From: Escherichia phage phiWec177
Reading direction: 5' to 3' (one strand)
Sequence record: LC739532.1
DNA: 64,000 nucleotides
Shown: positions 6,141-63,160 of the stretch, piece after piece
Position numbering within the stretch: position 1 is the stretch's first letter
How the letters are laid out: each line of letters opens with the position of its first letter
The notes under the pieces: generated by a model
What the model was told of the DNA's origin: nothing
Databases searched by the model: none
What the model saw: the letters and a program-made list of their open reading frames with translations, nothing else
Program-made: the position numbers and the translations under genes

Positions 6141-6470
6141 TTAATCTGCCAACCTTAAATTAAAATTAACACCAAATTTTTCACATACTCCCAACATATA
6201 CTCAAGAGAGACATTCCCAGTGAGGTGGATTATGTTGGATACACGAGCCTGAGAGATACCACAAATTTTAGCGACTTGCTCTTGAGAAAGACCTCTGGAT
6301 TTAATCTCTCTCTTAAAACGATGTGCAACGAAGTCCCTCATTTCGTCTACATCCATTGGACAAATATAACTCTCCATTTCAGCCTCTCTGTCAGCCTCCC
6401 AATCATCTTGTGGGGCATAAGGGTCAAAAGCTTCATTCATCTTTCTTCTTCCGTTTGCGTGAAGTGTCAA
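6141..6470 (-). CDS. helix-turn-helix DNA-binding protein
   Basis: GLSQEQVAKICGISQARVSNIIH resembles an XRE/sigma-type HTH. Confidence 0.5.
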   Translation of the reverse strand: MTLHANGRRKMNEAFDPYAPQDDWEADREAEMESYICPMDVDEMRDFVAHRFKREIKSRGLSQEQVAKICGISQARVSNIIHLTGNVSLEYMLGVCEKFGVNFNLRLAD

Positions 6471-9101: not shown

Positions 9102-9617
9102 TCAACTTAGTTTTGCAAACTCTCCGTGGAGTTTAATAGCAGCTTCACAGTAAGCTTTATGGGCTTCTTCTTCTGTTGTGTATGTCCCTATATGTATAGT
9201 CTTGCCATTATGGTTAATCTGGGCTTTCCACTTACCAGACTTACTTCTACTTGTACCTTTTAAGTTTTTTGATGTTCTAGGTTGTCTCCTATTAGACATG
9301 TTCTGTTCTTTTGTGGCCTCTCTTAGATTGTCCCAAGCGTTATTCAAACCATCTCCATCTTTGTGGTCAATTTGCTTATCAGGCCACTTGCCTGTCATCC
9401 AGAACCAAGCAATTCGGTGATTGCCTGTCCTGTATCCTAAAATCTGTGTGTGCATATACACACCAGACCTTGTGCGCTTAATTGCTCCGGCTTGGCTTCC
9501 AATAACCACCCTACTACTGTGTGGAGGTCTACCAATCCATGTTAAGACCCCTGTTTCGGGGTCATAATCTAACCAAGATTTTAACTGTTCATGTGTGAAT
9601 CCACAATCTCTCATCAA
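9102..9617 (-). CDS. HNH homing endonuclease (HNH plus AP2-like DNA-binding region)
   Basis: 171 aa; H..QIDHKDGDGLNNAWDNLREATKEQN HNH core; C-terminal GKWKAQI...GTYTTEEEAHKAY AP2-like; paralog of 32513-33004; overlaps polymerase stop by 4 nt. Confidence 0.75.
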   Translation of the reverse strand: MMRDCGFTHEQLKSWLDYDPETGVLTWIGRPPHSSRVVIGSQAGAIKRTRSGVYMHTQILGYRTGNHRIAWFWMTGKWPDKQIDHKDGDGLNNAWDNLREATKEQNMSNRRQPRTSKNLKGTSRSKSGKWKAQINHNGKTIHIGTYTTEEEAHKAYCEAAIKLHGEFAKLS

Positions 9618-10170
9618 TGTACCTCATACCACGACTTACCAACCTTTGCTGTACCAGTTACAAGTGTTTCTTTCCTCAAACCTAAGTTTTTTGAAGCTTG
9701 TCCATACATCCAGTCAGCAATTGCTTTCATATCCTGTGTCATACCCTCTGGACATTCCCAACTATTTTCATCGTGATATGCCAGAAGCAACCTTGCTCCG
9801 ATAGCTGGTTTTCGAGCATTCAGTTTTGTCAGGCCATCTTCACAGGCTTTTCTTGCTGCAAGGTTGATGGCCTCATTCTGAATCTGTGCTTCCGAACTCA
9901 TCAGGAGGTAGTTCAGTAGTTTATGTGGAGATTTGCACCATATCCATGCTCCAGCGACCCTGATATAACCACCTTTAGCAATTGAAGAATTCTTCCCAAA
10001 AACCTCTTCCAGAGCCTTTTTAGACGCCTTAAAATCGGCTTCTAAGCTATCAAGTAACTTCTTAATCTTTGGCAGACGCATATAGTAAGTTTGTTTAGTC
10101 AATGCACCTTCTTCCGTAGATGATGCCTTGATAGTTTTTGCAAACTTCTCGTCTCCAGCCCCGAACAATA
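9614..10170 (-). CDS. DNA polymerase (family A), exon 2
   Basis: Begins inside motif B (LFGAGDEK...) and contains motif C (LLLAYHDE); joins exon 1 to give ...KNGIYALLFGAGDEK. Confidence 0.8.
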
Positions 10171-10438
10171 CATCTGGTCAATACACTCGCAAGGTGTACC
10201 AGTTCTCTTATGAACTTCTCCGCATTTCTACGGAGTGTCGGACTATATCACGTAGTAGTAATACTACCGTTGCACTTGGGGATGGTCATTAGCTTACCAC
10301 CCTACTCTACTCAGTTCATACGTTAAGTATGCTTTTCGATAGTCTCTGAACGTTCCTCTTAAGAGGCTTCGCTGCTGATTACCATATCTTTACAGACTTA
10401 GGCTTCCAGCAATTCACAACGTTTTACATGCGCCACTG
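10171..10438 (-). mobile_element. group I self-splicing intron (ORF-less) in DNA polymerase
   Basis: Sense strand shows the P/Q/R/S core elements (AATTGCTGGAAG, AATCAGCAGCG, GTTCAGAGACTATC, TGATATAGTCC), an internal guide GCGCAT pairing with exon end ATGCGT with U:G at the splice site, and a 3' terminal G. Confidence 0.8.
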
Positions 10439-12581
10439 ACGCATAAATGCCATTTTTGCTCTTCTTACGACCTTTTGTAATCTCATGAAGAAGTTCCTCA
10501 TCCTGTGTCTCCCTACAACGAACAATATCTTCTTCCTTGTTCAGACCAAAGTAAATACTGTTAAGTGTATGCGCATCAGTACCTGTGTAGACTTCATACA
10601 AATCATTATCAGCATCGTAACGACAATATTTATCAGCCTCTGGATTTAGGTACTTATCAAGATGCTTGCAGTAGTATCGTCCATCATCCTGTTTAGTGAA
10701 CTCTACAAACTCTTTACCTTCAGTTACCGCTTTGGTGAAGTCTTTATCACCCATAAAGTTACACAGTAAAACAAGCTGTGCAGAGTTCTGGTCAACTGAA
10801 ACGATATTAGTCCCTTCCTCACAAATCCACACCTCCCTCATAGGCGCTCCATAGACAGCAGCACCAGATGGTACGTTTACAATACCATATTGTGTCATAC
10901 GTCCAGTTGAAGTGCCAAACACCATTGCACCAGCACTAAGGCGACCATCAGGACGAATCTGGTTCAACCAACCTTTTTCATCATCCTTTGAGTTCTCAAT
11001 AGTTCTGCGTCGGTGCATCAAAGTATAGTACTTAGCAATCTTCTGTCCAAGCTCACCTTCAATCGTATCATAAGATGACTCAGTAAGTTTTGGTGAAGTA
11101 CGGATTAAGCAAGGCTCAAGCAAATCTGTGTATTTCTTCACAGACCAGTTATGCTCAATGTACTGTACACCTTCATGCTCAACATAGCTCAAACCACACC
11201 GCTCAACCATTTCCTGCCACTTAGGATGCTTTGTAATCATCTTTTTATTGTCTTTGAAACGACAAACTTTGACAGGGCGACCGTCTGAGTCTTTCTTGTA
11301 GTTCCAGTCATCTGGAATCCAACCAACTGATTTCAAGTAGTCTTTAACAACTGCTACCTGAGTCATGCGAGAAACTTCGAACTCAATTGGTGTATATGGT
11401 GCATCAATCAAACCTGTGTAGCGACTTGACTCAAGTTCAAAGTGGTTAACAACGTGGCTGTTATAGTACTTCACAGTTTTGACTGTTTTTACTGGCTTCC
11501 AGTCTTTGCACTTCTTACCAATCTTTGCATTCAACTCATTGCAAATTGCACGAGCATCCTTCATTGCTACAAAACCTTCCTTGTACTCTTCACCAGTTAC
11601 AGAGTTGGTTGGTGTATAGCAATTTCTTTTTTCAATGTTAAAAATCTTTGTAGTTGGCTTACCAAATGGCTTGATTTCGTATGTCTGCATCTCACCGTTA
11701 CGCACCTGCTGACGATACTTTGTTTTAGGGTACTTGGTAATTCTTTTCAGTCCATCTGCATGACCAAATGTTTCAACATACTCATTCCAAGCTTTTGCAA
11801 ACTCTTCTCCAGTCACTTTACCTTTGGTCTTAATAGTTGGAGGTAGATGTGGTTCAACCTCTGAAGCAAGCTCATTAGTCAACTTGTCAAGTTCCTTTAC
11901 ATGGAACTCCATAAGCTCTTTATCAGCTTTCCAACCATTGATAGCTTGTTGACTCATCCAGAAAGATGTTTCTTTAGCTCGCATGTAAGTTTCATAAGTG
12001 TCTATACCACACTTCTTAAGCTTGAGATACTCGTTATCAAGTGCCCGTTTAGTTTTGGCGTTAATACGGATATCTTCTACAACACGAGTGAAGATTTCTG
12101 CATTCCACACACCCCAATGTTCAATCTCTGGCTTACGAACACCAACACGAGCACCCCATGCAGCCAAACCATGAGCACCTTTATAACCCTTTGGAGTTGG
12201 TCTATCCATCCACTGAACACGAGACTGGATAAGAGAATCCTGAAAGAAATTACTCCACGGCTTACATTTTGGATTATCAAAGTTCCATAAATCAGGTGCA
12301 ATGTGATTGAAGACCCACCAGTCATAACCGAGACCGTTATGGATGCAAAGACGTTTTGCCTTTAACGCAAATTCAACACCTTCACGTAAACCACCCTTAA
12401 TGTACTTGGTATACTTGTGACCGAGGATAGGCTCATCTGTAAAGACCCATACAGGTGGCTCTTCATCGTCAGATTTATAGTCTGCGAAAGCCATTACGTG
12501 CACTTTAGTGAACTCAAGGAGTAAACCATCAGTTTCTGTATCACCAACCAAATGTAAGTTCTTAAAATCTACGTTTTCCAT
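10439..12581 (-). CDS. DNA polymerase (family A), exon 1 (3'-5' exonuclease plus polymerase N-part)
   Basis: VGDTETDGL Exo I motif; motif A VSVDQNSAQLVLL; ends within motif B (...RKKSKNGIYA); track ORF reads through into intron to a stop at 10398. Confidence 0.85.
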
Positions 12582-38947: not shown

Positions 38948-38973
38948 AGGCTGCTTCGGCGGCCTTTTTTATT
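38948..38973 (+). terminator. rho-independent terminator
   Basis: GGCTGC-TTCG-GCGGCC then TTTTTT. Confidence 0.55.
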
Positions 38974-39031
38974 TGTATTTTGTGCAGAGTGCTGTATAAT
39001 TGTTGTCACGATAAACTAAACAGGAGAACCA

Positions 39032-40738: not shown

Positions 40739-40768
40739 CAGGCTCCTTCGGGAGCCTTTTTCATTTTA
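40739..40768 (+). terminator. rho-independent terminator
   Basis: CAGGCTCC-TTCG-GGAGCCT then TTTTT. Confidence 0.6.
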
Positions 40769-41889: not shown

Positions 41890-42097
41890 AAAGACCCGCA
41901 AGATTGTACGTTCAGCAGTATTCATAGGGAGAGATGAAGTCGTCCCGTTTGCAGGGGAAGATGTGCTAACTTATAAGAAGGGTTTAAAACGTAAATTCAG
42001 TGACCGTTTACGCGGCTTCATCTCTGAACCATTAGAAGATTTCAAAAGTCGCTGTGGCGAAGGCATCATCATCCAAGAGGCAATTATTCATGGCTGA
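41864..42097 (+). CDS. hypothetical protein
   Basis: Track ORF. Confidence 0.3.
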   Translation: MKVILARDKKTRKIVRSAVFIGRDEVVPFAGEDVLTYKKGLKRKFSDRLRGFISEPLEDFKSRCGEGIIIQEAIIHG

Positions 42098-42290
42098 CTT
42101 CTGCAAAGATTGTGCTATCGAAATGTTCGGACGTGATACAGGTGACTTAAAAGGTCTTATCACTGAAGATGACTTTAAAGCTGGCTATGCAATGCCAGTA
42201 ATCTGTGAAGGTTGTGGATGTATCTGGGTAGACCACGAAGGGCAACGTGTAAAGCCTTCAGAAGATAAAGAATCTTGGGAGAGATGTTAA
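42054..42290 (+). CDS. hypothetical Cys-rich protein
   Basis: CKDC ... CEGCGC pairs. Confidence 0.3.
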   Translation: MAKASSSKRQLFMADFCKDCAIEMFGRDTGDLKGLITEDDFKAGYAMPVICEGCGCIWVDHEGQRVKPSEDKESWERC

Positions 42291-43070
42291 ATGGGTATTG
42301 TAAAAGTTGTAAAAGGTAACTTACTAGCTGCCTTCAAAAACACAGACATTGAGTTAATTGCTCATGGTTGCAACTGTCGTAACCTCATGGGTGCTGGAAT
42401 CGCTCAAAAAATTGCTAAGATTTTCCCAAAAGCTGAAGAAGCTGACCGGAAGTTCCATAAAAAGTTTGGCTACAGTGCCCATGATATCGGATACCAGATG
42501 GCTGGTGAGGTGTCACATGCTCGAACGGAGTATGGTTACATTTTTAACCTATATACACAGTTGGATGTTGGGAAGTGTGCATCATACCGATACTTAGTGG
42601 AGTCACTAGAAAAACTCCGTAAATTTTGCTGGCTGCACAACATTCGTAAGATTGGTTTACCCATGATTGGGGCAGGTATAGGCGGTTTAGATGCACAAGC
42701 TGTGAAAAGCCTCATTAATAGTGTTATGTATAACGTTGATGTGTACCTATACGTCTATGATGAAGCAATGGCAAGTGTAGTTACCACTAAGTATGCTACC
42801 TCAGCACCACAATTCTATGATGGTGTCGTGCTAAGTGACGGGAAGACTAATCAAGTTACCCTCTATCAGCTTGTTGATGGCAAGGTTGAGGTTAGTTACC
42901 CTCTGGTTAGTGAGATGGGTATGTGTAACAGTGAAATGTTCCCAGTTGACCCGTTTGGAAGATATGAAGGTGTATTCTTTGATAACTACCCAGCAGCGTA
43001 CATCTACACAACAAATCAGGATGAAGTTCACTACTTGCTGTATTCTAAAAAGTTCAAATTCATAAGCTGA
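42291..43070 (+). CDS. macro domain protein (ADP-ribose binding/processing)
   Basis: VVKGNLLAAFKNTDIELIAHGCNCRNLMGAGIAQKI and later IGLPMIGAGIGGLD resemble macro-domain G-rich motifs. Confidence 0.6.
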   Translation: MGIVKVVKGNLLAAFKNTDIELIAHGCNCRNLMGAGIAQKIAKIFPKAEEADRKFHKKFGYSAHDIGYQMAGEVSHARTEYGYIFNLYTQLDVGKCASYRYLVESLEKLRKFCWLHNIRKIGLPMIGAGIGGLDAQAVKSLINSVMYNVDVYLYVYDEAMASVVTTKYATSAPQFYDGVVLSDGKTNQVTLYQLVDGKVEVSYPLVSEMGMCNSEMFPVDPFGRYEGVFFDNYPAAYIYTTNQDEVHYLLYSKKFKFIS

Positions 43071-43465
43071 TTAGTACTTCACAGTATCTACAAATCATCT
43101 AAGAAGGCTGCCTAACCCATTGAAAAATTTAAGGTAAGGCGGCCTTTTTCATTTTCAATTTGTGCAGGTATCTGGAGGGGTCTGTACAGATATCCCAAAA
43201 AATCTCATCGCCGGATAGAAAAATCATTTTCAAAACGTGCAGAGAAAAATCAGGTCGGGCAAGAAAAATCATTTTAGAATTGTGCAGGTAGGTGGGTGTA
43301 GGTGGGGATGTCGCCATTTCTCACAAGGCTACCACATCTAAAAAGAAAAGTCAACAGAAAAATTTGTAGCGGATTGAAAAATAATTCTTGATTGTAGTTC
43401 TGTTTTGTGGTAGTCGTGCGCGCCCGTTCCTCTCCCAAACTTACAAAAATATTTAATAAAAACTA

Positions 43466-43494
43466 TTGACACACAAAACAGGTTTACGTAATAT
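43466..43494 (+). promoter_or_regulatory. sigma70-like promoter
   Basis: TTGACA-17 bp-TAATAT upstream of the small-gene cassette. Confidence 0.5.
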
Positions 43495-43543
43495 TTGCAT
43501 CAGACGGGCAAGCAAGCCCACTCCCTAAACTGGAGATTCTAAA

Positions 43544-43750
43544 ATGTTATATCAACGCCAATTGATGATTGTAGACAATAACAAGACTAAAAAGCGCCGT
43601 TTCTTTATGCTTATTTGTGATGTATGGCAACGTATCTCAGAAAAGGATTTTGATAAATATGTTGATACATCAATCAGGTCAGATTGTTATTTGACAAATC
43701 ACACAAGACAGTTTACAAGACATACAGCAGTTTACTACTATGACGTTTAA
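43544..43750 (+). CDS. hypothetical small protein (cassette gene 1)
   Basis: Preceded by CCTAAACTGGAGATTCTAAAATG module. Confidence 0.45.
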   Translation: MLYQRQLMIVDNNKTKKRRFFMLICDVWQRISEKDFDKYVDTSIRSDCYLTNHTRQFTRHTAVYYYDV

Positions 43751-43761
43751 AAGGGCTTGAC

Positions 43762-43923
43762 AATGATTAAAGAAGGCAATGTAATAAGCTACAAAGATTT
43801 AGACGGATACCCAAAAATTGGGAAAGTTTTCTACCTTTACAAGTCAGTGATGGATAATGACTGCATAGCCCTAACAAATGGCGACAAGATAACCATGAAA
43901 GATTTTATAAAAATTATTTCATA
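43762..43923 (+). CDS. hypothetical small protein (cassette gene 2)
   Basis: 53-codon ORF MIKEGNVISYKDL... below track cutoff; fills gap before repeat A1. Confidence 0.3.
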
Positions 43924-44011
43924 AAGTGCTTTACATGGGGTTTAAAAAGGTAGTATCTTAAGCCCCAGATAAAGAGCTTTACCACTCAATCCTAAATTGG
44001 AGAACTTAAAA
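43922..44011 (+). repeat. intergenic module type A, copy 1
   Basis: Hairpin GGGGTTTAA...TTAAGCCCC then AGATAAAGAGCTTTACCACTCAATCCTAAATTGGAGAACTTAAAA before ATG. Confidence 0.7.
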
Positions 44012-44392
44012 ATGGCATACCGCGCACCGAAATTCATCAATAAAGAAAATTTTCGTAATGTATTAGAGAAGGCGCTTGATGAAAAATTTAACGGCAAAAT
44101 AATTGTTGTTCACTCGTTCAATTTTAAGTATGATATCAACGGGAATAAAATCAACCATTACACGGCAACCATGTTAGATGGTACTCTTTCAAGTGAAAAA
44201 ACAATTCTCCATGCACTTGCAGGACGTGGTAAAAACCTGATAAGATGCGATAAGAGACGTTATCAGGGTGGCGCATATGGTTATGATGATGCTGTTTATC
44301 ATCTTGAAAATATGGGCTATTCAGTGGAAAAAGCTGGAGTGTCTCAAATAATCGGCAGTGACGGCTATGTGACAATTTTCAAAATTAACTAA
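44012..44392 (+). CDS. hypothetical protein (cassette gene 3)
   Basis: ATG at 44012 after type A module; track ORF 43997 starts at upstream TTG. Confidence 0.45.
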   Translation: MAYRAPKFINKENFRNVLEKALDEKFNGKIIVVHSFNFKYDINGNKINHYTATMLDGTLSSEKTILHALAGRGKNLIRCDKRRYQGGAYGYDDAVYHLENMGYSVEKAGVSQIIGSDGYVTIFKIN

Positions 44393-44480
44393 TAAAGTAC
44401 TTTACAGGGGGCTTACAGTTCGATAAAGTAAGCCCCAGATAAAGAGCTTTACCACTCAATCCTAAACTGGAGTTTCAAAA
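44393..44480 (+). repeat. intergenic module type A, copy 2
   Basis: AAAGTACTTT palindrome, hairpin GGGGCTTAC...GTAAGCCCC, conserved AGATAAAGAGCTTTACCACTCAATCCTAAACTGGAG. Confidence 0.75.
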
Positions 44481-44777
44481 ATGAAACTATCAAATAAAGC
44501 CCGTGAAAATCTAAGCAAGTTACTTAACAAAATTGATTTTATTGAAACATCAAGGAATAGTCATGATGTTATGGAATGGTTACACGGCAAAATAAAAGGC
44601 CGTCGTGTAGTAATTTGCTTATGGAATAGTTGCAGGGAATATAAAAAACCTGTATTACAAGTCAATATCTACGATGATACTTTTAAAAGCCCTGTAAAGT
44701 CTAAAAGCGATTTATTAGAATCTTATGAGATAACTGTAAGTGGCAAAGTATCACGTAAAGAGGAAACACCGTGTTAA
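44481..44777 (+). CDS. hypothetical protein (cassette gene 4)
   Basis: Track ORF after module A2. Confidence 0.45.
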   Translation: MKLSNKARENLSKLLNKIDFIETSRNSHDVMEWLHGKIKGRRVVICLWNSCREYKKPVLQVNIYDDTFKSPVKSKSDLLESYEITVSGKVSRKEETPC

Positions 44778-45103
44778 TGACTGGTATCACTGCAATCATT
44801 GCCATTTTCGCGCTATATAAGGCATATAAAGCCTATAATCTAGCAAATAAGGCAATCACACAGCAGGTTAGCAATAACCTTGTAGAGAGCTTTCTAGGAC
44901 GCCTCAGTGATGAGCAAATAAAGCGGCTAGAGATGAGCTTCAGATATAAAGCGAAAACCTATCAGATAAGTGACATCTTCAAAGATGATTTTCAGTTAGT
45001 CGATGATTATAATTCACTGATAAATGCTTTGAATGTCAGTGACTTAAAAGATTATTACGTTGTAATTGTTCAAGAATTGAGCAAACGAAAAAATTCCTCT
45101 TGA
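44771..45103 (+). CDS. hypothetical membrane-anchored protein (cassette gene 5)
   Basis: N-terminal hydrophobic TGITAIIAIFALY. Confidence 0.4.
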   Translation: MLMTGITAIIAIFALYKAYKAYNLANKAITQQVSNNLVESFLGRLSDEQIKRLEMSFRYKAKTYQISDIFKDDFQLVDDYNSLINALNVSDLKDYYVVIVQELSKRKNSS

Positions 45104-45120
45104 TTTTGGTTTTTAAAACA

Positions 45121-45193
45121 AGTAAATTACTAATCAACGGTGAGGGAATGAACTTCCCCACTAAGTAAAGTCCTTAAACTAGGAGATTCAAAA
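45121..45193 (+). repeat. intergenic module type B, copy 1
   Basis: ATTACTAATCAACGG, hairpin GGGAATGAACTTCCC, then ACTAAGTAAAGTCCTTAAACTAGGAGATTCAAAAATG. Confidence 0.7.
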
Positions 45194-45466
45194 ATGTATA
45201 CTACTAACAACGGTCGCACTTTAAACGTAACCCTACGCCACTATGTGAACGGTGTAATGCACTTCGAGGATTTACAAGCCGAACAACACATTTTAGATTG
45301 GCAACTTGCAGGACTCCAAAAAACTGTTACAGGATACGGGAAAAAGATTCCAACTAGCTGGAAAGTATACTACGAAGGCCGTTTGCGCAGAATTTATCAA
45401 GATGTATACAGCAATAGCGCAACAAGTTACATCATGGTAAAAGGTAAAAAGCTGCATTTAGCATAA
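45194..45466 (+). CDS. hypothetical protein (cassette gene 6)
   Basis: Track ORF after module B1. Confidence 0.45.
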   Translation: MYTTNNGRTLNVTLRHYVNGVMHFEDLQAEQHILDWQLAGLQKTVTGYGKKIPTSWKVYYEGRLRRIYQDVYSNSATSYIMVKGKKLHLA

Positions 45467-45552
45467 AGTACTTTACAAGGGGCTTATAGTTCGATAAAGT
45501 AAGCCCCAGATAAAGAGCTTTACCACTCAATCCTAAACTGGAGAACTTAAAA
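45464..45552 (+). repeat. intergenic module type A, copy 3
   Basis: Near-identical to copy 2. Confidence 0.75.
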
Positions 45553-45957
45553 ATGGCTATTAATAACCGTGAATTATCAATTTTAAAAGCACGTTTGACC
45601 GTTAACCGGATTAATGTTATTACGTCATCAGCACCAGATGAAACATTGCACAGCATTATTGGGAAGATTCAAAGTATTATTTTAGACGTTGAAAACGTAA
45701 AAAGTTCATTGGCTGACGTTGCAGCAGGTATCACGCTAGACGGTGCGCAATATGAAATGATTGATATGCTAGGCAAATCTAAGGTAATGAATAGGGAGTT
45801 AGATTTGAAAATGTTTAGATTTGCTGTTAAAGTATGGCTATCCGTCGAGTATGACGCTAATTTTGCAATCGCTGATTTCTTTGCCACTTGGTTACAACGT
45901 AATTTGACAAATCACGATTTTCGTGATGTCTGTGATGCAATTTATGCAGAACTCTAA
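45553..45957 (+). CDS. hypothetical protein (cassette gene 7)
   Basis: Track ORF after module A3. Confidence 0.45.
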   Translation: MAINNRELSILKARLTVNRINVITSSAPDETLHSIIGKIQSIILDVENVKSSLADVAAGITLDGAQYEMIDMLGKSKVMNRELDLKMFRFAVKVWLSVEYDANFAIADFFATWLQRNLTNHDFRDVCDAIYAEL

Positions 45958-45966
45958 AAAATTTTG

Positions 45967-45995
45967 TTGACACTGATTTTTAGATAGGTTAAATT
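45967..45995 (+). promoter_or_regulatory. sigma70-like promoter
   Basis: TTGACA-17 bp-TAAATT just upstream of module B2. Confidence 0.45.
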
Positions 45996-46057
45996 ACACA
46001 TCAACGGGGAGGCGATAACCTCCCCACTAAATAAAGTCCTAAACTGGAGATTCTAAA
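45989..46057 (+). repeat. intergenic module type B, copy 2
   Basis: ATCAACGGGGAGGCGATAACCTCCCCACTAAATAAAGTCCTAAACTGGAGATTCTAAAATG. Confidence 0.75.
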
Positions 46058-46261
46058 ATGGCTATTATCAACGGCTTACACATTGAAACAACTCACATCA
46101 AAGATATTAAAGTTGGTGATATAGTTCTCTTTCACGGCGTAGAAAAAACTGTCACGGCGAAAGATATTACAGAAGAATCTTTCATGGGCCGGTCACTCTT
46201 CGGTGATTCTTATTGCTTAGGTTACCGTGCAGTTTTAAAAGTTGTCAAAAATAACAAATAA
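46058..46261 (+). CDS. hypothetical small protein (cassette gene 8)
   Basis: Track ORF after module B2. Confidence 0.45.
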   Translation: MAIINGLHIETTHIKDIKVGDIVLFHGVEKTVTAKDITEESFMGRSLFGDSYCLGYRAVLKVVKNNK

Positions 46262-46346
46262 AGTACTTTACAAGGGGCTTAAAAGTTGGTATCTTAAGCC
46301 CCAGATAAAGAGCTTTACCACTAAATCCTAAACTGGAGATTCAAAA
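46259..46346 (+). repeat. intergenic module type A, copy 4
   Basis: AAAGTACTTT, hairpin GGGGCTTAA...TTAAGCCCC, AGATAAAGAGCTTTACCACTAAATCCTAAACTGGAG. Confidence 0.75.
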
Positions 46347-46889
46347 ATGAAATGCTTTCATGGTACTACTCAAGAAAACTTTATCAACCTGATTAATAAC
46401 GGTGATAAACCATCGGGCGCATGGAATTGTTCGGATATGGACGGCAATTTTTACGTTTATCCAGAAAATAAAATCTATGGCGACGATGAGGAAGAGATAA
46501 CAGCCGAAGGTATCCAACAAGCTCTAGGCAATGCCACTATCACCGCAGCTTTTCAGATGAAGACTCAAAATATTGTTATCTTAGAACTCGATATTCCAGA
46601 GGATGAGCTAAACGATGATTATTCTTGTGATAATATGTCGAGTGTAGCAAGTTTTACAGAGTACTTTGATGTAAGTTGGATTAAAAAGGTTTACGTAACA
46701 GAATTTAATGCGATGTATTCGCCTTTTTGTCTTCCTTCACTGGATAACCCAAATATGAACTATCTTGATGAGTCTCTGGAGCTTCTCGCTAAAAGTGTTC
46801 AACAGTCGGACAGTATTCAGGTTTTTTGTGACATCATGGATACACTAACGGGAAACATCACAGAGAGAGACTTAAAGAGCTTTTTTTAA
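46347..46889 (+). CDS. hypothetical protein (cassette gene 9)
   Basis: 180 aa, acidic; no motif recognised. Confidence 0.45.
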   Translation: MKCFHGTTQENFINLINNGDKPSGAWNCSDMDGNFYVYPENKIYGDDEEEITAEGIQQALGNATITAAFQMKTQNIVILELDIPEDELNDDYSCDNMSSVASFTEYFDVSWIKKVYVTEFNAMYSPFCLPSLDNPNMNYLDESLELLAKSVQQSDSIQVFCDIMDTLTGNITERDLKSFF

Positions 46890-46919
46890 AACCTATACAA
46901 TCACCTTATAAACACTAAT

Positions 46920-46942
46920 CAGCCCCTTACAGGGGCTTTTAG
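46920..46942 (+). terminator. rho-independent terminator
   Basis: AGCCCCT-TAC-AGGGGCT then TTT. Confidence 0.55.
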
Positions 46943-46954
46943 AGGGCTTAAATC

Positions 46955-47188
46955 ATGCTAACAACCGTTTATCTCATCCTCTCAATTTGTAATGGCCATT
47001 CATGCGATTTTAAAGGGCTTGAGGAGTTTACAGGGAGTAAAGAGAATGCTGTTCAAGTTTGCCAGATAGCAAGGCAAGACTATCCCGCAAGTGATGATAT
47101 ACAATGTTACTTTAAGACAGAAGATGACGAAGGAATCTATTTCGACAGTGTTGATGGACAATATGAGATTATCATTGAAAAAGACTAG
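46955..47188 (+). CDS. hypothetical small protein (cassette gene 10)
   Basis: Hydrophobic N-terminus with Cys; possible exported protein. Confidence 0.4.
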   Translation: MLTTVYLILSICNGHSCDFKGLEEFTGSKENAVQVCQIARQDYPASDDIQCYFKTEDDEGIYFDSVDGQYEIIIEKD

Positions 47189-47204
47189 ACAAGCCTGATA
47201 AAAA

Positions 47205-47279
47205 TCTGTAAATTGTCAATCAACGGGGGGGGGGAATGACCTTCCCCACTAAATAAAGTCCTAAACTGGAGATTCTAAA
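47205..47279 (+). repeat. intergenic module type B, copy 3
   Basis: AATCTGTAAATTGTCAATCAACGGGGGGGGGAATGACCTTCCCCACTAAATAAAGTCCTAAACTGGAGATTCTAAA. Confidence 0.75.
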
Positions 47280-47528
47280 ATGTATACTAAAACGCAACTT
47301 AAAAGCATGGTTAACAATGGTTTAATGGATGAAGTCTACAAAGAATGTAGACGCTATGGAAAAATCATGGATAAGTCTAGTTATGAGTATACTCACACAA
47401 TAGATTTCAAAACTAATGAAAAACAAACTGACTTTATCACTGTAATAGTTATTGAATATAAACACTTGCTGTGGACTTTTGAGCTAGTAAAAGGTGAGTG
47501 TATAGAAATCGAATACAAAGACGCTTAA
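47280..47528 (+). CDS. hypothetical small protein (cassette gene 11)
   Basis: Track ORF after module B3. Confidence 0.45.
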   Translation: MYTKTQLKSMVNNGLMDEVYKECRRYGKIMDKSSYEYTHTIDFKTNEKQTDFITVIVIEYKHLLWTFELVKGECIEIEYKDA

Positions 47529-47607
47529 AAGTACTTTACAGGGGGCTTAAAAGTTGATATCTTAAGCCCCCAGATAAAGAGCTTTCCTAAACTGGAGATT
47601 CAAAAAG
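47526..47607 (+). repeat. intergenic module type A, copy 5 (shortened)
   Basis: AAAGTACTTT, hairpin GGGGGCTTAA...TTAAGCCCCC, AGATAAAGAGCTTTCCTAAACTGGAG. Confidence 0.7.
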
Positions 47608-47754
47608 ATGACACATACTATTGAGACAGTTTTTAACAACCCTGTATTCTCAGAGATGATTTTCTCATTTGTCATGATGTTACTAGTAAAAACCATGAAA
47701 AAAGCAGAAAAACTGCATTTAAAGAAAAAATCTATTGTAAACCGTCTTAAGTAA
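47608..47754 (+). CDS. hypothetical small membrane protein (cassette gene 12)
   Basis: 48-codon ORF MTHTIETVFNNPVFSEMIFSFVMMLLVKTMKK... below track cutoff. Confidence 0.35.
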   Translation: MTHTIETVFNNPVFSEMIFSFVMMLLVKTMKKAEKLHLKKKSIVNRLK

Positions 47755-47800
47755 AGATAAAGTATCTAGCAATCTCACTTCCTAAACTGGAGAATCTAAA

Positions 47801-48142
47801 ATGGCTTATGTAACCGTAATTACCGATAAAGAGAATTCATCTTGGTCAACTCAGGTTAGTGACAAGATGTCACCTATGCAGTGCCTAAAATACTTTGAAC
47901 AGTGGAATAGAGGTGAGGATACAAGCCCCTTTCAAGTGATGCAGATTATCCATACAGATAACGAAGGGAATAAAACGACTTTAAATAGTGAGTACTACGC
48001 AAGCCGTTTTGAAACGAGAAGTAGAACAATGAAGCTTCTACGTGAATCCGGTTATGCTCATATTGCCGCTCTAATCTGGGATGACCTGCTAAAAAGTCAG
48101 CGTATCAGCTATGTAAAACCTGAAAAAATATTCATCAGTTAA
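47801..48142 (+). CDS. hypothetical protein (cassette gene 13)
   Basis: Preceded by short CCTAAACTGGAGAATCTAAAATG module. Confidence 0.45.
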   Translation: MAYVTVITDKENSSWSTQVSDKMSPMQCLKYFEQWNRGEDTSPFQVMQIIHTDNEGNKTTLNSEYYASRFETRSRTMKLLRESGYAHIAALIWDDLLKSQRISYVKPEKIFIS

Positions 48143-48291
48143 TCAATAACTTACAAAAAACTTTTAAAAAAGTGTTGACAATACCCCTTGACATTGGTAA
48201 CTTTGTTCGAGGGGGTTTATCTAAAAGGGATTCACTTAAAAGATTCTTTATAGATAAGCTTAAAAATTGCTTGCATTCAACTATCAAAACA

Positions 48292-48361
48292 AGTAAATTA
48301 CTAATCAACGGGGAGGCAATAACATCCCCACTAAATAAAGTCCTAAACTGGAGATTCTAAA
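48292..48361 (+). repeat. intergenic module type B, copy 4
   Basis: ATTACTAATCAACGGGGAGGCAATAACATCCCCACTAAATAAAGTCCTAAACTGGAGATTCTAAA. Confidence 0.75.
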
Positions 48362-48892
48362 ATGAACAAATTTCAAGCTATCAACCACATTCGTTCAAAT
48401 AGTGTCATGTCTAAGCCTGTTAAAGACACATATGAGTTCCGTTGTAATGGGGTACACTTTGCAACCATCACTAAATCAGAAAACGGGGCTTATTACGTTC
48501 ATCGTCGTAATGTTTATACCGTTGTAGTCTCTCACTTTATGCAAGCTGTAGCAGAGTTATTACCGTTATTCTTAGAGATTTACTTAGATGAGTGTAAAAA
48601 CGTTCACAACCACGTTAAAAACCTTTTAAACGGTTATAAAATGGCTTATGAGCGTTCTATCAAGTCCTTAAACAAGTTCTATAAAGCCCCTGCAAATACT
48701 GTTTCAATGGCTTACAGTGTAAGCGGTGAGTTGGTTAGTCTCTTCGAAGTGGAAGAAATCGAACTATATAACTCACGCCCTAGCGGTTACTCTAAGACAC
48801 TGGGAGAGGGCTTATCTTTCAATATCAAGAACTTAGAGAAAACTTTAAAAGATATTGAAAAAGATATTGACGAGACAATCAAAAATCTGTAA
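48362..48892 (+). CDS. hypothetical protein (cassette gene 14)
   Basis: 176 aa; its 3' end is part of repeat module B5. Confidence 0.45.
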   Translation: MNKFQAINHIRSNSVMSKPVKDTYEFRCNGVHFATITKSENGAYYVHRRNVYTVVVSHFMQAVAELLPLFLEIYLDECKNVHNHVKNLLNGYKMAYERSIKSLNKFYKAPANTVSMAYSVSGELVSLFEVEEIELYNSRPSGYSKTLGEGLSFNIKNLEKTLKDIEKDIDETIKNL

Positions 48893-48959
48893 ATTGTCAA
48901 TCAACGGGGAGGGAATGACCTTCCCCACTAAATAAAGTCCTAAACTGGAGATTCTAAAA
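48876..48959 (+). repeat. intergenic module type B, copy 5
   Basis: Near-identical to copy 3, including upstream AAAATCTGTAAATTGTCAATCAACGG. Confidence 0.75.
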
Positions 48960-49715: not shown

Positions 49716-49800
49716 AAGTTACGTAAAAGTAGCTTAAAAGTAGCTTAAAAGTTACGTAAATGCTAGCCCCCTTAACATTTTCTTAACAATTTCTTAACAA
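49716..49800. repeat. nested direct repeats (GTTACGTAAAA / GTAGCTTAAAA x2 / CTTAACAATTT x3)
   Basis: AGTTACGTAAAAGTAGCTTAAAAGTAGCTTAAAAGTTACGTAAA then CTTAACATTTTCTTAACAATTTCTTAACAA. Confidence 0.8.
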
Positions 49801-49826
49801 TCCCTACATAGTTATACTTTTAAGGC

Positions 49827-59735: not shown

Positions 59736-59812
59736 CTCTGTTTAGCTCAGCTTGGTAGAGCGTTCCGTTTGGGGCGGTAAGGCCGGAGGTTCAAGTCCTC
59801 CAACAGAGACCA
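59736..59812 (+). tRNA. tRNA-Pro (anticodon TGG), tentative
   Basis: Acceptor CTCTGTT/AACAGAG, D-arm GCTC..GAGC, loop TTTGGGG, T-arm GGAGG-TTCAAGT-CCTCC, CCA encoded. Confidence 0.7.
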
Positions 59813-59819
59813 AATTAAT

Positions 59820-59894
59820 GTCGTAGAAGGCAAATGGTTAGCCACCTGACCTTCAATCAGTTGCTCGCGGGTTCGAATCCCGTCTACGACTCCA
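59820..59894 (+). tRNA. tRNA (anticodon TTC, Glu?) tentative
   Basis: Acceptor GTCGTAG/CTACGAC, T-arm GCGGG-TTCGAAT-CCCGT, CCA; anticodon loop CCTTCAA. Confidence 0.6.
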
Positions 59895-59977
59895 AATTTG
59901 ACAGAAGACCAAGTACAGCAAACAACTTTACTTTTCGCGCATAGAAAACTTAAAATTTTGGTCTGGTCATAAAAGTT

Positions 59978-60054
59978 CGCGGGTATAGAGAAAGGGCGTC
60001 TCACATGTCTCATTAGCATGGTATCGGCAGGTTCGACTCCTGCACCCGCCTCCA
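59978..60054 (+). tRNA. tRNA (anticodon CAT; Met or Ile2)
   Basis: Anticodon arm CATGT-CTCATTA-GCATG, T-arm GCAGG-TTCGACT-CCTGC, CCA. Confidence 0.65.
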
Positions 60055-60138
60055 AATTTACAGAAGACCGTTTACAGCAACATTTATTAAATTTTTAGCG
60101 GAAAAAATTGAAAGATACGGTCTGGTAATACTAAACAT

Positions 60139-60214
60139 GGTTAGGAAGCACATAAGGTATGTGCGGTCGCCTGTTAAGCGAATGGCACAGGGTTCGAATC
60201 CCTGACTAACCGCA
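60139..60214 (+). tRNA. tRNA-Asn (anticodon GTT), tentative
   Basis: D-arm GCAC..GTGC, anticodon loop CTGTTAA, T-arm CAGGG-TTCGAAT-CCCTG; 3' end lacks full CCA. Confidence 0.6.
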
Positions 60215-60223
60215 AAATTAAAT

Positions 60224-60311
60224 GTGTCGTTATCCCGTAGATGGTAGCGGTGGGGACTGTAAATCCCTTGTCATTGAGACTCGGTAGGTTCGACTCCTAC
60301 ACGGCACACCA
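60224..60311 (+). tRNA. tRNA-Tyr (anticodon GTA), class II
   Basis: Acceptor GTGTCGT/ACGGCAC, anticodon arm GGGGA-CTGTAAA-TCCCT, long variable arm, T-arm GTAGG-TTCGACT-CCTAC, CCA. Confidence 0.7.
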
Positions 60312-60333
60312 ACACTTAGCGAGATACTTAGTT

Positions 60334-60762
60334 ATGAGAGATGAAGTATACAAATCACAACTTGGTATGAGTTTGGGAACTGCACAAAACAGACTAGTAA
60401 AAGATTTGCTATTCGATTTTATATGTAAGACAAATCAAAATAGATGTTTTCAGTGCGGAAAAGAAATGACTAGGGATGATTTCTCTATCGAGCATAAGAT
60501 TCCGTGGAGACATAGTGAGAATGCAAAAGAGCTTTTCTTTTCACTAGATAATATTTCTTATAGTCATCTTAAATGTAACATGAAAGCAGCAAGACCAGCA
60601 CAGATAAGTGAAAGAAAACATAAAACAATTAAACACGGAACTGCGTATAGCTATTTTAAAGGCTGTAGATGCGATGAGTGTAGGCTGGCTAAGAATGCTG
60701 AGAGTAGAAGAAACTATAGTCCAGAAAGACGTAGGAAGAAGTATCTAAGAAATGGTACATGA
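60334..60762 (+). CDS. HNH endonuclease inside the tRNA array
   Basis: Start at internal Met (MRDEVYK...) of track ORF 60241-60762, whose N-terminal part overlaps tRNA-Tyr; CFQCGKEM...SIEHKIPW...N...HLKCN HNH pattern. Confidence 0.7.
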   Translation: MRDEVYKSQLGMSLGTAQNRLVKDLLFDFICKTNQNRCFQCGKEMTRDDFSIEHKIPWRHSENAKELFFSLDNISYSHLKCNMKAARPAQISERKHKTIKHGTAYSYFKGCRCDECRLAKNAESRRNYSPERRRKKYLRNGT

Positions 60763-60766
60763 ATTT

Positions 60767-60842
60767 GGGGTATTAGTTTAGACGGGTAAAATACGGGATT
60801 GTCTCTCCTGAGCCGCGAGTTCGATTCTCGCATACCTCGCCA
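60767..60842 (+). tRNA. tRNA-Asp (anticodon GTC), tentative
   Basis: Acceptor GGGGTAT/ATACCTC, anticodon arm CGGGA-TTGTCTC-TCCTG, T-arm GCGAG-TTCGATT-CTCGC, CCA. Confidence 0.6.
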
Positions 60843-61270
60843 ATTTTGAGAGGGCTATTTAGCCCCTCCCTTAAAGAGTTCTTACGAGTATTCTTTAAAG
60901 GAGCAGAAGACCAAATTCAGCAAGTTACTTAAAATTTCAAGCCAATTTAATTTTGAAAAATTTAAAACTTGGTCTGGCTCAACAAATTTACAGAAGACCG
61001 TTTACAGCAAAACTTAAACAATCTATTTCTCGGTAAAGAAAAGGCGAAGGTTCGATTCCTTCACTCGGCAGATGTCGAGTTGGTGTAATGGTAGCACTTA
61101 AGATGATAAACAACGGTCTGGTAATTATCTTTGTAGATAAGTTATTAAGCTTACCTGTGAGTATGCGACCACAAAGGGTGAAAGGGTAAATTCTAGATTT
61201 AAACCCAAAAAGGCACATCGCTACAGACCTTAAGCAAGTCTGGGTAGCTTATCTACAAAGATAATTTAAT

Positions 61271-61346
61271 GGAAGTGTAGCAGAATGGTGATGCGGCAGA
61301 CTTTTAATCTGACAGGCGATGGGTTCGAATCCCTCCACTTCTACCA
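61271..61346 (+). tRNA. tRNA-Lys (anticodon TTT)
   Basis: Anticodon loop CTTTTAA, T-loop TTCGAAT, acceptor GGAAGTG/CACTTCT, CCA; T-stem only 3 clear pairs. Confidence 0.6.
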
Positions 61347-61351
61347 AAAAT

Positions 61352-61428
61352 GGTTCAGTCGCAGATAAGGTAATGCAAGGGTCTCATAAGCCCTATGAAT
61401 GTGGGTTCGATTCCCATCTGAACCTCCA
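61352..61428 (+). tRNA. tRNA (anticodon CAT; Met/fMet or Ile2)
   Basis: Acceptor GGTTCAG/CTGAACC, anticodon loop CTCATAA, T-arm GTGGG-TTCGATT-CCCAT, CCA. Confidence 0.7.
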
Positions 61429-61430
61429 AT

Positions 61431-61506
61431 GCTGTGAAAGCACATATGGATGTGCATTCGGCTGATAACCGAAAGGCAGAAGGTTCAAATCCTTCTCACA
61501 GTACCA
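61431..61506 (+). tRNA. tRNA-Ile (anticodon GAT)
   Basis: Acceptor GCTGTGA/TCACAGT, D-arm GCAC..GTGC, anticodon arm TTCGG-CTGATAA-CCGAA, T-arm GAAGG-TTCAAAT-CCTTC, CCA. Confidence 0.75.
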
Positions 61507-61521
61507 ATTTCAATAAAGTTG

Positions 61522-61550
61522 TTGACATTGAGATGTGACTACTTTATAGT
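61522..61550 (+). promoter_or_regulatory. sigma70-like promoter inside tRNA array
   Basis: TTGACA-17 bp-TATAGT. Confidence 0.5.
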
Positions 61551-61754
61551 AACCTTAGTTTTCGTTGCGTAGCGTCTATTTTGCAAATTTAAAATAAATG
61601 CAAACGACAATGTTTTTCTGGCAGTAGCTTGATAGGCTAAACACCAGTGAGGTCTTCCAATCCCTCATCAAAGAATTTGGCGTACTCGCCCACGGTATGA
61701 TTAATAAGGTGGGCATCTTTAAGGGCTTTCTAAGAGAGTCTTTAAAGATAATTA

Positions 61755-61836
61755 CGGGGCGTATCTCAGCTGTCTTCTAAACAGCCGTTAACCGAGTAAG
61801 TGGAGTATGCGGGTTCGAGTCCTGCCGCCTCGACCA
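61755..61836 (+). tRNA. non-canonical tRNA-like element (Arg TCT-like anticodon arm, no clear D-arm)
   Basis: Acceptor CGGGGCG/CGCCTCG, perfect arm GCTGT-CTTCTAA-ACAGC, T-arm GCGGG-TTCGAGT-CCTGC, CCA; only 7 nt between acceptor and anticodon arm, 23 nt before T-arm. Confidence 0.4.
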
Positions 61837-61979
61837 ATTTAGTTAGCAGATTACTTAGACGACCTAAGCGGGTCTTCCTGTAGGGAGGTGGTCTGTATCT
61901 CATGTTTTCAAGAACATGTAAATAATCTGAGAAGGGGCTTTACAGTGTTGAGATAATACGGTAAGCTTCGAATTATAGT

Positions 61980-62062
61980 ATGGGACGATGTTAAGACTCT
62001 AAGGCATGAGCAACGGCCTCCAAAACCGTTTCAAAGGGGTTCAACTCCTCCGTCCCATGCCA
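61980..62062 (+). tRNA. non-canonical tRNA-like element (anticodon undetermined)
   Basis: Acceptor ATGGGAC/GTCCCAT with CCA, T-loop TTCAACT; internal stem AACGG-CCTCCAAAA-CCGTT has a 9-nt loop. Confidence 0.4.
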
Positions 62063-62075
62063 AAGTCTTATTAGG

Positions 62076-62165
62076 GGTAGGTAGCGGCTAATGGTAGCCA
62101 AACTGTCTTGAAAACAGTTGCCACTGTAGAGATACGGTGAGGGTTCGACTCCTTTACTTACCGCC
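62076..62165 (+). tRNA. tRNA-Ser (anticodon TGA), class II
   Basis: 3-bp D-stem, anticodon arm ACTGT-CTTGAAA-ACAGT, about 20-nt variable arm, T-arm GAGGG-TTCGACT-CCTTT; CC only at 3' end. Confidence 0.65.
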
Positions 62166-62423
62166 TAATAAGATTTAATTCCCGCGCTCGTCTAACAAGC
62201 TCGGTTTTTACTCGTGTATTGGCGTACACGGCACGACTATAAAGCACCTAGTAGGTGTCGCGGAGAAGAGATAGTATCAAGCTCTCCAAAGGTTCTAGTC
62301 ACCGGATTAAACAAGACTATGCAAAGACCTTTTTAGGTCTTTTTAGAGGGCTTCTAAGGTTATTACAGCTTGTTGTGGAACCTTGTTGCTTAGGTTCTTA
62401 GAAGTTCTCTAAAAAGGTTTAAT

Positions 62424-62501
62424 GGGAGATTGACGGTAATTGGTAAACCTACCATCCTTAGAAGTTGGTGTTTGAGGGTTCGAATCCCTTGTCTCCCACC
62501 A
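62424..62501 (+). tRNA. tRNA (anticodon TAG?, Leu-like but short variable arm), tentative
   Basis: Acceptor GGGAGAT/GTCTCCC, T-arm GAGGG-TTCGAAT-CCCTT, CCA; anticodon arm has one mismatch. Confidence 0.5.
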
Positions 62502-62508
62502 AATTAAT

Positions 62509-62584
62509 GCAGGTGTAGCAAAATGGTTATGCGGCTGACTCTTAATCAGTAAGACGATGGGTTCAATTCCCTCCACCTGTACCA
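62509..62584 (+). tRNA. tRNA-Lys (anticodon CTT), paralog of 61271-61346
   Basis: Anticodon loop CTCTTAA, acceptor GCAGGTG/CACCTGT, CCA; same weak T-stem as the TTT copy. Confidence 0.6.
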
Positions 62585-62590
62585 AACAAT

Positions 62591-62666
62591 GGGGTCATAG
62601 TTTATATGGTTAAAATTCGAGTTTTGCAAACTTGGGAACTGAGTTCAATTCTCAGTGACTCCACCA
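62591..62666 (+). tRNA. tRNA-Ala (anticodon TGC)
   Basis: Acceptor GGGGTCA/TGACTCC, anticodon arm CGAGT-TTTGCAA-ACTTG, T-arm CTGAG-TTCAATT-CTCAG, CCA. Confidence 0.7.
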
Positions 62667-62672
62667 ATTAGT

Positions 62673-62747
62673 GCATCCATAGTTTAAACGGGAAAATTAC
62701 AGTCTTCCAAACTGAGGTTGAGGGTTCGATTCCCTCTGGATGCTCCA
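62673..62747 (+). tRNA. tRNA-Gly (anticodon TCC)
   Basis: Acceptor GCATCCA/TGGATGC perfect, anticodon loop CTTCCAA, T-arm GAGGG-TTCGATT-CCCTC, CCA. Confidence 0.75.
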
Positions 62748-62753
62748 AATAAT

Positions 62754-62830
62754 GCTGCTTTCGTATAATTGGCTATTACACATCCCTTGTAAGGATGGAG
62801 ATGCGGGTTCAAGTCCTGTGAGCAGCACCA
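62754..62830 (+). tRNA. tRNA-Thr (anticodon TGT)
   Basis: Anticodon arm CATCC-CTTGTAA-GGATG perfect, acceptor GCTGCTT/GAGCAGC, CCA. Confidence 0.75.
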
Positions 62831-62925
62831 ATTCAGAGGTCAAGTGAAAGACCGCTGGTGTCAACTGAAGACCGTAACAAATTCCACGGAGTTGAGTTAG
62901 CGGCACAACTTCAGACCTCTTTCAC

Positions 62926-63000
62926 ACTCGCTTAGTTTATATGGTAAAACATCACCCTTACAAGATGAAGAAAAAGGTTCAAGTCCTTTAGTGAGTACCA
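62926..63000 (+). tRNA. tRNA-Val (anticodon TAC), tentative
   Basis: T-arm AAAGG-TTCAAGT-CCTTT perfect, acceptor ACTCGCT/AGTGAGT, anticodon loop CTTACAA, CCA. Confidence 0.6.
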
Positions 63001-63001
63001 T

Positions 63002-63079
63002 GTTCCAGTATCCCAATTGGCAGAGGATGCAAGCTCAAACCTTGTATTAGTGACGGTTCGAATCCGTCTTGGAACACCA
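63002..63079 (+). tRNA. tRNA (anticodon CAA?), tentative
   Basis: T-arm GACGG-TTCGAAT-CCGTC perfect, acceptor GTTCCAG/TTGGAAC, anticodon arm GCAAG-CTCAAAC-CTTGT, CCA; short variable arm is unusual for Leu. Confidence 0.55.
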
Positions 63080-63084
63080 ATTTT

Positions 63085-63160
63085 GCAGGATTAGTTCAAA
63101 TGGATAGAGCAACAGTCTACGAAGCTGTTAATAGGGGTTCGAATCCCTTATCCTGCGCCA
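63085..63160 (+). tRNA. tRNA-Arg (anticodon ACG)
   Basis: Acceptor GCAGGAT/ATCCTGC perfect, anticodon arm ACAGT-CTACGAA-GCTGT, T-loop TTCGAAT, CCA. Confidence 0.75.

Follow-up and report, generated by a model that had tools for sequence, protein, structure and literature searches.

Among described systems, the iterons of pSC101, R6K, F, P1 and the lambda origin are among the closest to the element reported here: their sites, each ~20 bp long, share one direction and a bipartite conserved core and form a single array together with an A+T block and promoters, and in plasmids the sites are contiguous (~22 bp). T7-like replication systems start at sites made of a promoter plus A+T-rich sequence, and use of iterons is not known from T7-type replication systems. 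The primary origin of T7 is an intergenic region early in the genome with tandem promoters and an A+T-rich stretch, its repeated element being the T7 RNA polymerase promoter. Further points of reference are the DnaA box, with the consensus TTWTNCACA, and non-coding modules that recur within early regions of phage genomes, such as the promoter/stem-loop cassettes (PeSL) of T4-type phages and DR_1 to DR_9 of phage wV8, each of which stands before a gene.

The window analysed here is a stretch of 64,000 nucleotides from Escherichia phage phiWec177 (LC739532.1), a Felix O1-like phage of the genus Felixounavirus within the subfamily Ounavirinae. Salmonella typing and biocontrol both make use of Felix O1 and its relatives, which are also candidates for therapy and are now subject to genome-wide engineering. 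The replication genes are T7-like and comprise a primase-helicase with Toprim plus DnaB_C domains and a DNA polymerase. An intron, along with additional ORFs, apparently interrupts the polymerase gene: an Rfam group I intron match at 10218-10501 on the minus strand (63.8 bits, E = 7e-14) has ORFs nearby at 9102-9617, 9614-10168 and 10398-12581 and adjoins a 727-aa ORF, apparently a partial DNA polymerase (909 aa in Bas63). A cluster of 17 tRNA genes occupies 59736-63160 on the plus strand.

The repeats lie between a phosphatase/macro-domain gene (42291-43070, plus strand; PHROG 'phosphatase') and a 68-codon ORF at 43544, the first of a run of small genes without known function; this is the border between the rII/lysis/phosphatase operon and a cassette of small genes occupying the final ~6 kb of the genome. 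The phosphatase gene in the window has ~41% protein identity to the version found in most Felixounaviruses and is followed by a different terminator sequence; the variant is an allele replacement, and its end coincides exactly with the conserved array. A preliminary description of the DNA had reported three spaced CATTTT/GTGCAG copies upstream of the cassette. All three are present, as same-direction copies of CATTTT-N5-YGTGCAG on the plus strand starting at 43150, 43225 and 43270 (Table 1). The 3' block had been given as TGTGCAG in every copy, which holds for copies 1 and 3, copy 2 reading CGTGCAG. The sequence said to precede two of the copies is AGAAAAAT, before copies 2 and 3. The repeats were also described as sitting between a terminator-like hairpin and a TTGACA-17-TAATAT promoter, and both elements were recovered in our analysis.

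Table 1. Features of the array region and of the possible additional site, in window coordinates
Feature	Position	Strand	Sequence and sub-elements	Remarks
Terminator (Rho-independent) of lysis/phosphatase operon	43101..43149	+	-23.3 kcal/mol, z = -4.7, then T run	Compensatory pair changes in relatives; annotated terminator in wV8 and ASO1B
Repeat 1	43145..43170	+	TTTTT-CATTTT-CAATT-TGTGCAGG-TA; CATTTT 43150-55, TGTGCAGG 43161-68	Best profile match, 28.5 bits
Stretch without repeat in window and BPS17L1	43171..43216		One more repeat, GAGAAAATTCATTTTCAAACTGTGCAGGTA, here in most relatives	From alignment, copy numbers and spacings
Window repeat 2	43217..43244	+	AGAAAAAT-CATTTT-CAAAA-CGTGCAG-AG; AGAAAAAT 43217-24, CATTTT 43225-30, CGTGCAG 43236-42	Ortholog of repeat 3 of four-copy phages
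Window repeat 3	43262..43290	+	AGAAAAAT-CATTTT-AGAAT-TGTGCAGG-TA; AGAAAAAT 43262-69, CATTTT 43270-75, TGTGCAGG 43281-88	Ortholog of repeat 4 of four-copy phages
55-nt spacer, G-rich allele	43291..43345			Directly after last repeat
Possible leftward sigma-70 promoter facing array	43326..43354	-	TTGACT, 17 nt, (TGg)TAGCCT	Read from sequence; unflagged by consensus scan
Near-invariant 48-bp block	43346..43393		75% A+T; AAAAGTCAACAGAAAAATTTGTAGCGGATTGAAAAATAATTCTTGATT	Entropy 0.11 bits (30 sequences); unique in window
Rightward early promoter of right-terminal small-gene cassette	43466..43494	+	TTGACA-17-TAATAT; TTGACA 43466-71, TAATAT 43489-94	Hexamers conserved in alignment
Possible degenerate fifth copy	38970..39000	+	TATTTG-TATTT-TGTGCAG; promoter -10 TATAAT at 38995-39000	Directly after rIIB terminator

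A motif search showed that the copies are confined to this one place and do not occur at chance frequency. When CATTTT-N5-YGTGCAG was searched on both strands of the 64 kb with at most one mismatch, these 3 were the only matches, against 0.32 expected, and none of 100 shuffled sequences reached 3. The remaining 23.5 kb of the ~86-kb genome, read from phage phiWec172, contained zero copies of the motif, and a profile built from 50 units found no further significant match in the window genome or in 61 kb of Erwinia phage phiEa21-4. The preceding element AGAAAAAT occurs six times in the window, four of these inside 147 bp at the array.

Over positions 42000-45000 the window is 99.5% identical to Escherichia phage phiWec172, with 100% identity in the intergenic region, and a homologous region was found in ~255 phage records. 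We aligned ten phages from the genera Felixounavirus, Mooglevirus and Suspvirus, all three of which have the same layout; most of the ten carry four copies, the window and BPS17L1 being without the second. Among 30 distinct homologous sequences, assembled with loci from a viral contig collection included, 22 carry four copies and the remaining 8 carry three, with start-to-start spacings of 73-77, 39-41 and 45 bp. The repeats are real: with its three copies, the window shows one copy-number variant of a non-coding array in which three or four sites of 22-30 bp share one direction, and which the four genera of Felix O1-like phages preserve with little change in the same position.

The consensus unit reads AAGRG-WWWWT-TCATTTY-MRAWYY-GTGCAG-GTA. 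Among 112 copies extracted by a pattern that itself fixes CATTT and GTGCA, the T at position -1 and the G at position 6 of GTGCAG are present in 98-99%. Mean entropy is 0.02 bits in CATTT plus GTGCAG, 0.52 bits between the blocks and between the units, and 0.86 bits in the spacer that follows the array (30 sequences). TCATTT is preceded by five A/T bases that are rich in A or else rich in T, suggesting that an A·T tract matters and not the particular bases. Flanking sequences of the four genera are 60-80% identical or cannot be aligned, and the two blocks are near-invariant in every copy.

The fourth genus is Kolesnikvirus, whose members infect Erwinia and carry four copies ending in GTGCATAG. 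Phage phiEa21-4 shares the layout after its own phosphatase gene and terminator: four units of the form GGNNNN-TTTTT-CATTTT-N5-TGTGCATAG at 37/37/39-bp spacing are followed by a C-rich tract and a TTGACT-17-TATATT promoter. BLAST comparison of Kolesnikvirus with the other genera returned the array as the only similar stretch. The array is therefore common to the subfamily's four genera. When the viral contig collection was scanned for the exact pattern, the scan found multi-copy loci only in contigs of 50-94 kb from this subfamily; a scan with the Kolesnikvirus-type motif was uninformative, with chance single matches among the matches listed. The array is the most strongly conserved non-coding element found in the region, and it is not described in the papers on Felix O1, wV8, UAB_Phi87 and Pr103Blw, in the comparative Felixounavirus paper or in the PhageMaP paper. 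Since it occurs once per genome and in all four genera, it is a well-defined element that can be addressed at low cost by footprinting, pull-down, deletion and mapping of the origin.

Several GenBank records carry short 'hypothetical proteins' over the array: genes 96 and 97 of Bas63 (L005, 594-909) and ORFs at 904-1131 in L004, 594-782 in L008, 609-902 in L009 and 2902-3066 in L002. The annotated ORFs are mostly on the minus strand, in wV8 on the plus strand. Protein coding was rejected, as the frame, start and length of the minus-strand ORFs vary from phage to phage and the motif is read as YLH.. or as LPAQF; the annotations are very likely spurious. The PhageMaP screen of Bas63, the only source of functional data, scored barcode insertions in 'gene 96' at +0.24 to +0.98 in all conditions retrieved (bioRxiv 10.1101/2024.10.10.617714), which is similar to non-essential neighbours. 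This 'gene' is the annotated minus-strand ORF overlying repeats 1-3, and the scores cover these repeats; repeat 4, the spacer and the block lie in 'gene 97'. The neutral insertions imply that, on laboratory strains, each of repeats 1-3 is individually dispensable. Given four copies and possible back-up origins, they weaken, rather than remove, the case for an essential cis-acting role.

The T run of the terminator (43145-49) doubles as the 5' T-tract of repeat 1. The spacer occurs as two alleles that cannot be aligned with each other, G-rich in the window and Bas63 and C-rich in Felix O1, at roughly equal frequency among the 30 phages; its length is 55 nt for both alleles in Felixounavirus, the C-rich allele having 49-51 nt in Mooglevirus and Suspvirus. 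Sequence comparison gave no support to the idea that the alleles are mutual inversions. As predicted RNA, the C-rich allele would give a C-rich, G-poor rightward transcript and the G-rich allele a C-rich leftward one. Beyond the spacer, 55 bp from the array end, lies the A+T-rich block, which is invariant across relatives and has predicted imperfect inverted arms, AGTCAACAG and TTCTTGATT. The left arm on the minus strand is also the -35 hexamer of the candidate leftward promoter and is invariant in the alignment. At the matching place phiEa21-4 has TTGACG-18-TATACT, a 10/12 match, and Hena2 keeps both hexamers while part of its spacer is changed. The region would have promoters on both flanks, the leftward one being read from the sequence.

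The order of promoter, repeats and hairpin on the minus strand, clearest in phiEa21-4 and kept in Hena2, raises the question of whether the array is transcribed as a leftward non-coding RNA of repeated modules, running from a promoter near 43350 to the hairpin and acting as a sponge or as a type III antitoxin mimic like pseudo-ToxI in PhiTE. The ranges reported for type III antitoxins include periods of 37-45 nt and three or four copies (PMC3401426), the array locally resembles ToxI (GTGCAG..TAGAAATTCA), dispensability on laboratory strains would suit an anti-defence function, and plasmids carrying ToxI are common in E. coli and Salmonella. However, folds of the array on either strand did not differ significantly from shuffled sequences (z = -1.4 and -0.9), compensatory changes in relatives were confined to the terminator, and Rfam returned only terminator-like matches at the array. 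The leftward -10 hexamer would be a poor one in the C-rich allele (TAAGAG). Similarity to ToxI, whose sequence was verified against pECA1039, was not significant over six tests (p = 0.03 to 0.9), and type III antitoxins consist of near-identical tandem units of 31-62 nt, whereas the array units are only 72-88% alike and are interrupted by the 73-77 bp gap. A motif-pair scan and BLAST of bacterial genomes, E. coli genomes and plasmids found no relevant related array; tandem motif pairs in bacteria matched in unrelated taxa, and the sole enterobacterial match, in Pantoea and the only one inspected, was a protein-coding repeat. The array thus differs from ToxI and pseudo-ToxI in having no pseudoknot, covariation or near-identical units and in the bacterial counterpart, of which none was found. 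A mimic of ToxI or pseudo-ToxI was rejected on these grounds, and we regard the RNA reading as a whole as unlikely.

The position between a terminator and promoters also invites a role in transcription control at the operon border, in which a regulator bound to the array would block read-through or modulate the flanking promoters and would use a single further site at the promoter after rIIB. The preliminary description had noted TTTTGTGCAGAG near 38960; the sequence exists, at 38978-89, and by itself is a match at chance level. The looser pattern ATTT-N7-GTGCA occurs four times in the window, against 1.0 expected, the match at 38971-86 being the only one outside the array. In a promoter whose -10 hexamer is a perfect TATAAT, it covers approximately positions -37 to -20, and Mooglevirus HP1 keeps the bipartite motif here while the five bases in between are changed. 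Yet the profile of 50 units did not accept this match as a full unit, and phiEa21-4 has no copy at the equivalent solitary site; we therefore treat it as a doubtful fifth copy.

The array itself is less suggestive of an operator. Operators overlap or abut promoters, whereas 175 bp separate the last copy from the -35 hexamer at 43466 and the copies span 175-320 bp upstream of it; only the doubtful copy near 38971 overlaps a promoter. Copies are absent from the other cassette promoters and have no dyad symmetry such as a helix-turn-helix (HTH) dimer would lead one to expect. The units themselves were not flagged as tandem sigma-70 promoters (-35 and -10 at 16-18 bp) on either strand of the window or Felix O1; in phiEa21-4 only, two units score as minus-strand sigma-70 promoters. 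In favour of transcription control, these phages do encode a regulator, the only one of the HTH class found in our scan: an XRE-type protein (HTH_3, E = 3e-9) at 6141-6467 on the minus strand, present in Felixounavirus, Mooglevirus and Suspvirus and essential in Bas63 as gene 35, with a PhageMaP score of about -1.2. It gave no tblastn match in the array-bearing Erwinia Kolesnikviruses, and was rejected as the array-binding protein because the two distributions differ. Transcription control at the operon boundary is a possible role short of probable, almost as likely as the origin role discussed below, given the position after a terminator and the doubtful copy that overlaps a promoter.

Resemblances between the units and their surroundings could also mean that the array is a functionless relic, what remains of duplicated terminator tails and leaders, a type of sequence that shuffles small genes in the early cassette. 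The 5' half of the unit is like a terminator tail, GCCTTTTTCATTTTAG being found also at 40754, and AAAGAGCTTT is common to the units and the promoter/stem-loop modules of the cassette; the copy number varies between three and four, and insertions are tolerated. A relic would hardly be expected, on the other hand, to keep two blocks near-invariant across four genera despite divergent flanks, or to hold its position and spacer length fixed, and we consider this explanation quite improbable. The modules in question fall into two families, located in the intergenic stretches of window 43925-48958 before small early genes and all ending in the leader CCTAAACTGGAG; they correspond to DR_1 to DR_9 annotated in wV8 and resemble T4-type cassettes.

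Location relative to the genome end suggests yet another function, as a signal for DNA entry or packaging. The injection-stop region of T5, which delimits the first-step-transfer DNA, is non-coding and repeat-rich, and the array would in a similar way delimit, on its inner side, the ~6.8 kb at the right end. All genes from the array to the right end belong to the terminal early cassette, are small, have no known function and are driven by sigma-70 promoters, and the array of phiEa21-4 is followed, after ~7 kb, by a gap of 1.2 kb that contains no genes. The terminal repeats of Felix O1-like phages are short and exact, with 608 bp as experimentally determined in UAB_Phi87 (PMC4837284) and 581 bp by PhageTerm in Pr103Blw (PMC8303462). 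Mapping the annotated Pr103Blw repeat onto the window (89% identity) located the direct terminal repeat at 49766-50379, which puts the array 6.2 kb inside the right end; at this distance the array was rejected as a terminal repeat or genome boundary. About two dozen short repeats like CTTGTTAAG, CTGTTAAG and TTCTTAACA were seen within the terminal repeat, a family distinct from that of the array. Such a family would be a more natural packaging signal, there are no reports of two-step DNA entry in Felix O1-like phages, and insertions in the array are neutral, so that an entry or packaging signal is the explanation to which we give least credence.

We therefore return to the repeats as protein sites. 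They are asymmetric, share one orientation, combine two invariant blocks with a drifting middle, occur once per genome and keep a fixed distance to the A+T block, all of which fits sites for a protein. In our judgement the chance that this DNA array binds protein, the most likely explanation for it, is about even; the repeats would then be sites for one sequence-specific DNA-binding protein. Each site would span ~22-30 bp, with an A/T tract, TCATTTY, five or six variable bases and YGTGCAG(GTA). With starts ~12 bp apart, the invariant blocks would lie on one face of the helix, and a single protein that has two reading heads may contact both, as iteron-binding initiators do, a geometry deduced from the block spacing. 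Three or four such sites, the length-fixed spacer and the A+T block could then assemble into one nucleoprotein complex at the operon/cassette border. Here the suggestion 'operator or iteron' made in the preliminary description holds at the level of the class, in that the repeats behave like protein-binding sites, while neither specific form is established.

Which protein would bind is a separate matter. A domain scan of the array-flanking ORFs and some larger ones found no known DNA-binding or Rep family in the genes that flank the array. The consensus sequences of IHF, Fis, CRP, Fur, PhoP and the marbox, compared by eye, gave at most leads, and none fits all units. The best-fitting of them is presumably the marbox, with its second element one base out of register. 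A bolder proposal is that a host protein conserved across Enterobacterales, either DnaA-like or a Rob/MarA-like monomer reaching into two adjacent grooves, binds the array and fires a phage origin or halts DNA entry at the 6-7 kb 'first-transfer' edge. A slowly evolving host partner would explain why the half-sites are near-invariant when the phage proteins have strongly diverged. If this were true, Felix O1-like phages would be a second example of T5-style staged infection, although the chances of it appear slim.

As to the role of a protein-bound array, we tentatively prefer a replication origin, either of the iteron type or activated by transcription from the flanking promoters, a possibility that should still be taken as well short of probable. 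It is attractive because the replication genes are T7-like, because such systems start at promoters with A+T-rich sequence, and because promoters flank the block. For practical purposes, care is advised around the array when deletions or insertion sites are designed. The array provides a precise target in this phage group, and its kind can be named: a conserved, putatively protein-binding direct-repeat array.

Comparison with the described systems places the array as follows. Like the promoter/stem-loop modules of T4-type phages and wV8, it consists of repeated non-coding units in an early region, but those modules have clear -35/-10 hexamers plus a stem-loop and each stand before a gene, neither of which is true of the array units. 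DnaA boxes are also a poor match to Felix-type phages. The window units (ACCTGCACA or TCTGCACG) have three mismatches to the consensus, and a cluster of DnaA boxes was rejected; Felix-type units all read ACCTGCACA, a 6/9 match, and the invariant CATTT lies outside the DnaA box, whereas in Kolesnikvirus, as in phiEa21-4, the 3' block read on the opposite strand (CTATGCACA or TTATGCACG) agrees at 8/9. With the primary origin of T7 the array shares the intergenic position, the promoters, the A+T-rich stretch, T7-like replication proteins and a dispensability that back-up origins would allow; it differs in that its repeated units are not convincing promoters in the window or Felix O1. Compared with iterons, which as a rule come as at least three same-direction repeats of ~17-22 bp, the array offers a 22-bp core on the plus strand, present three times in the window and four times in most relatives. 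Plasmid iterons are regularly spaced at about two helical turns, whereas the array units are 37-77 bp apart, irregular and out of helical phase; insertions are tolerated, and no cognate initiator of the Rep type was found among the array-flanking and some larger ORFs scanned. Operators of dimeric repressors in turn call for a co-occurring regulator, and the sole HTH regulator found has no match in the array-bearing Erwinia phages. With their asymmetry and ~22-bp core, the units resemble iterons more closely than dimeric-repressor operators, and an iteron-like set of sites for a single protein is most likely the best reading of the array.
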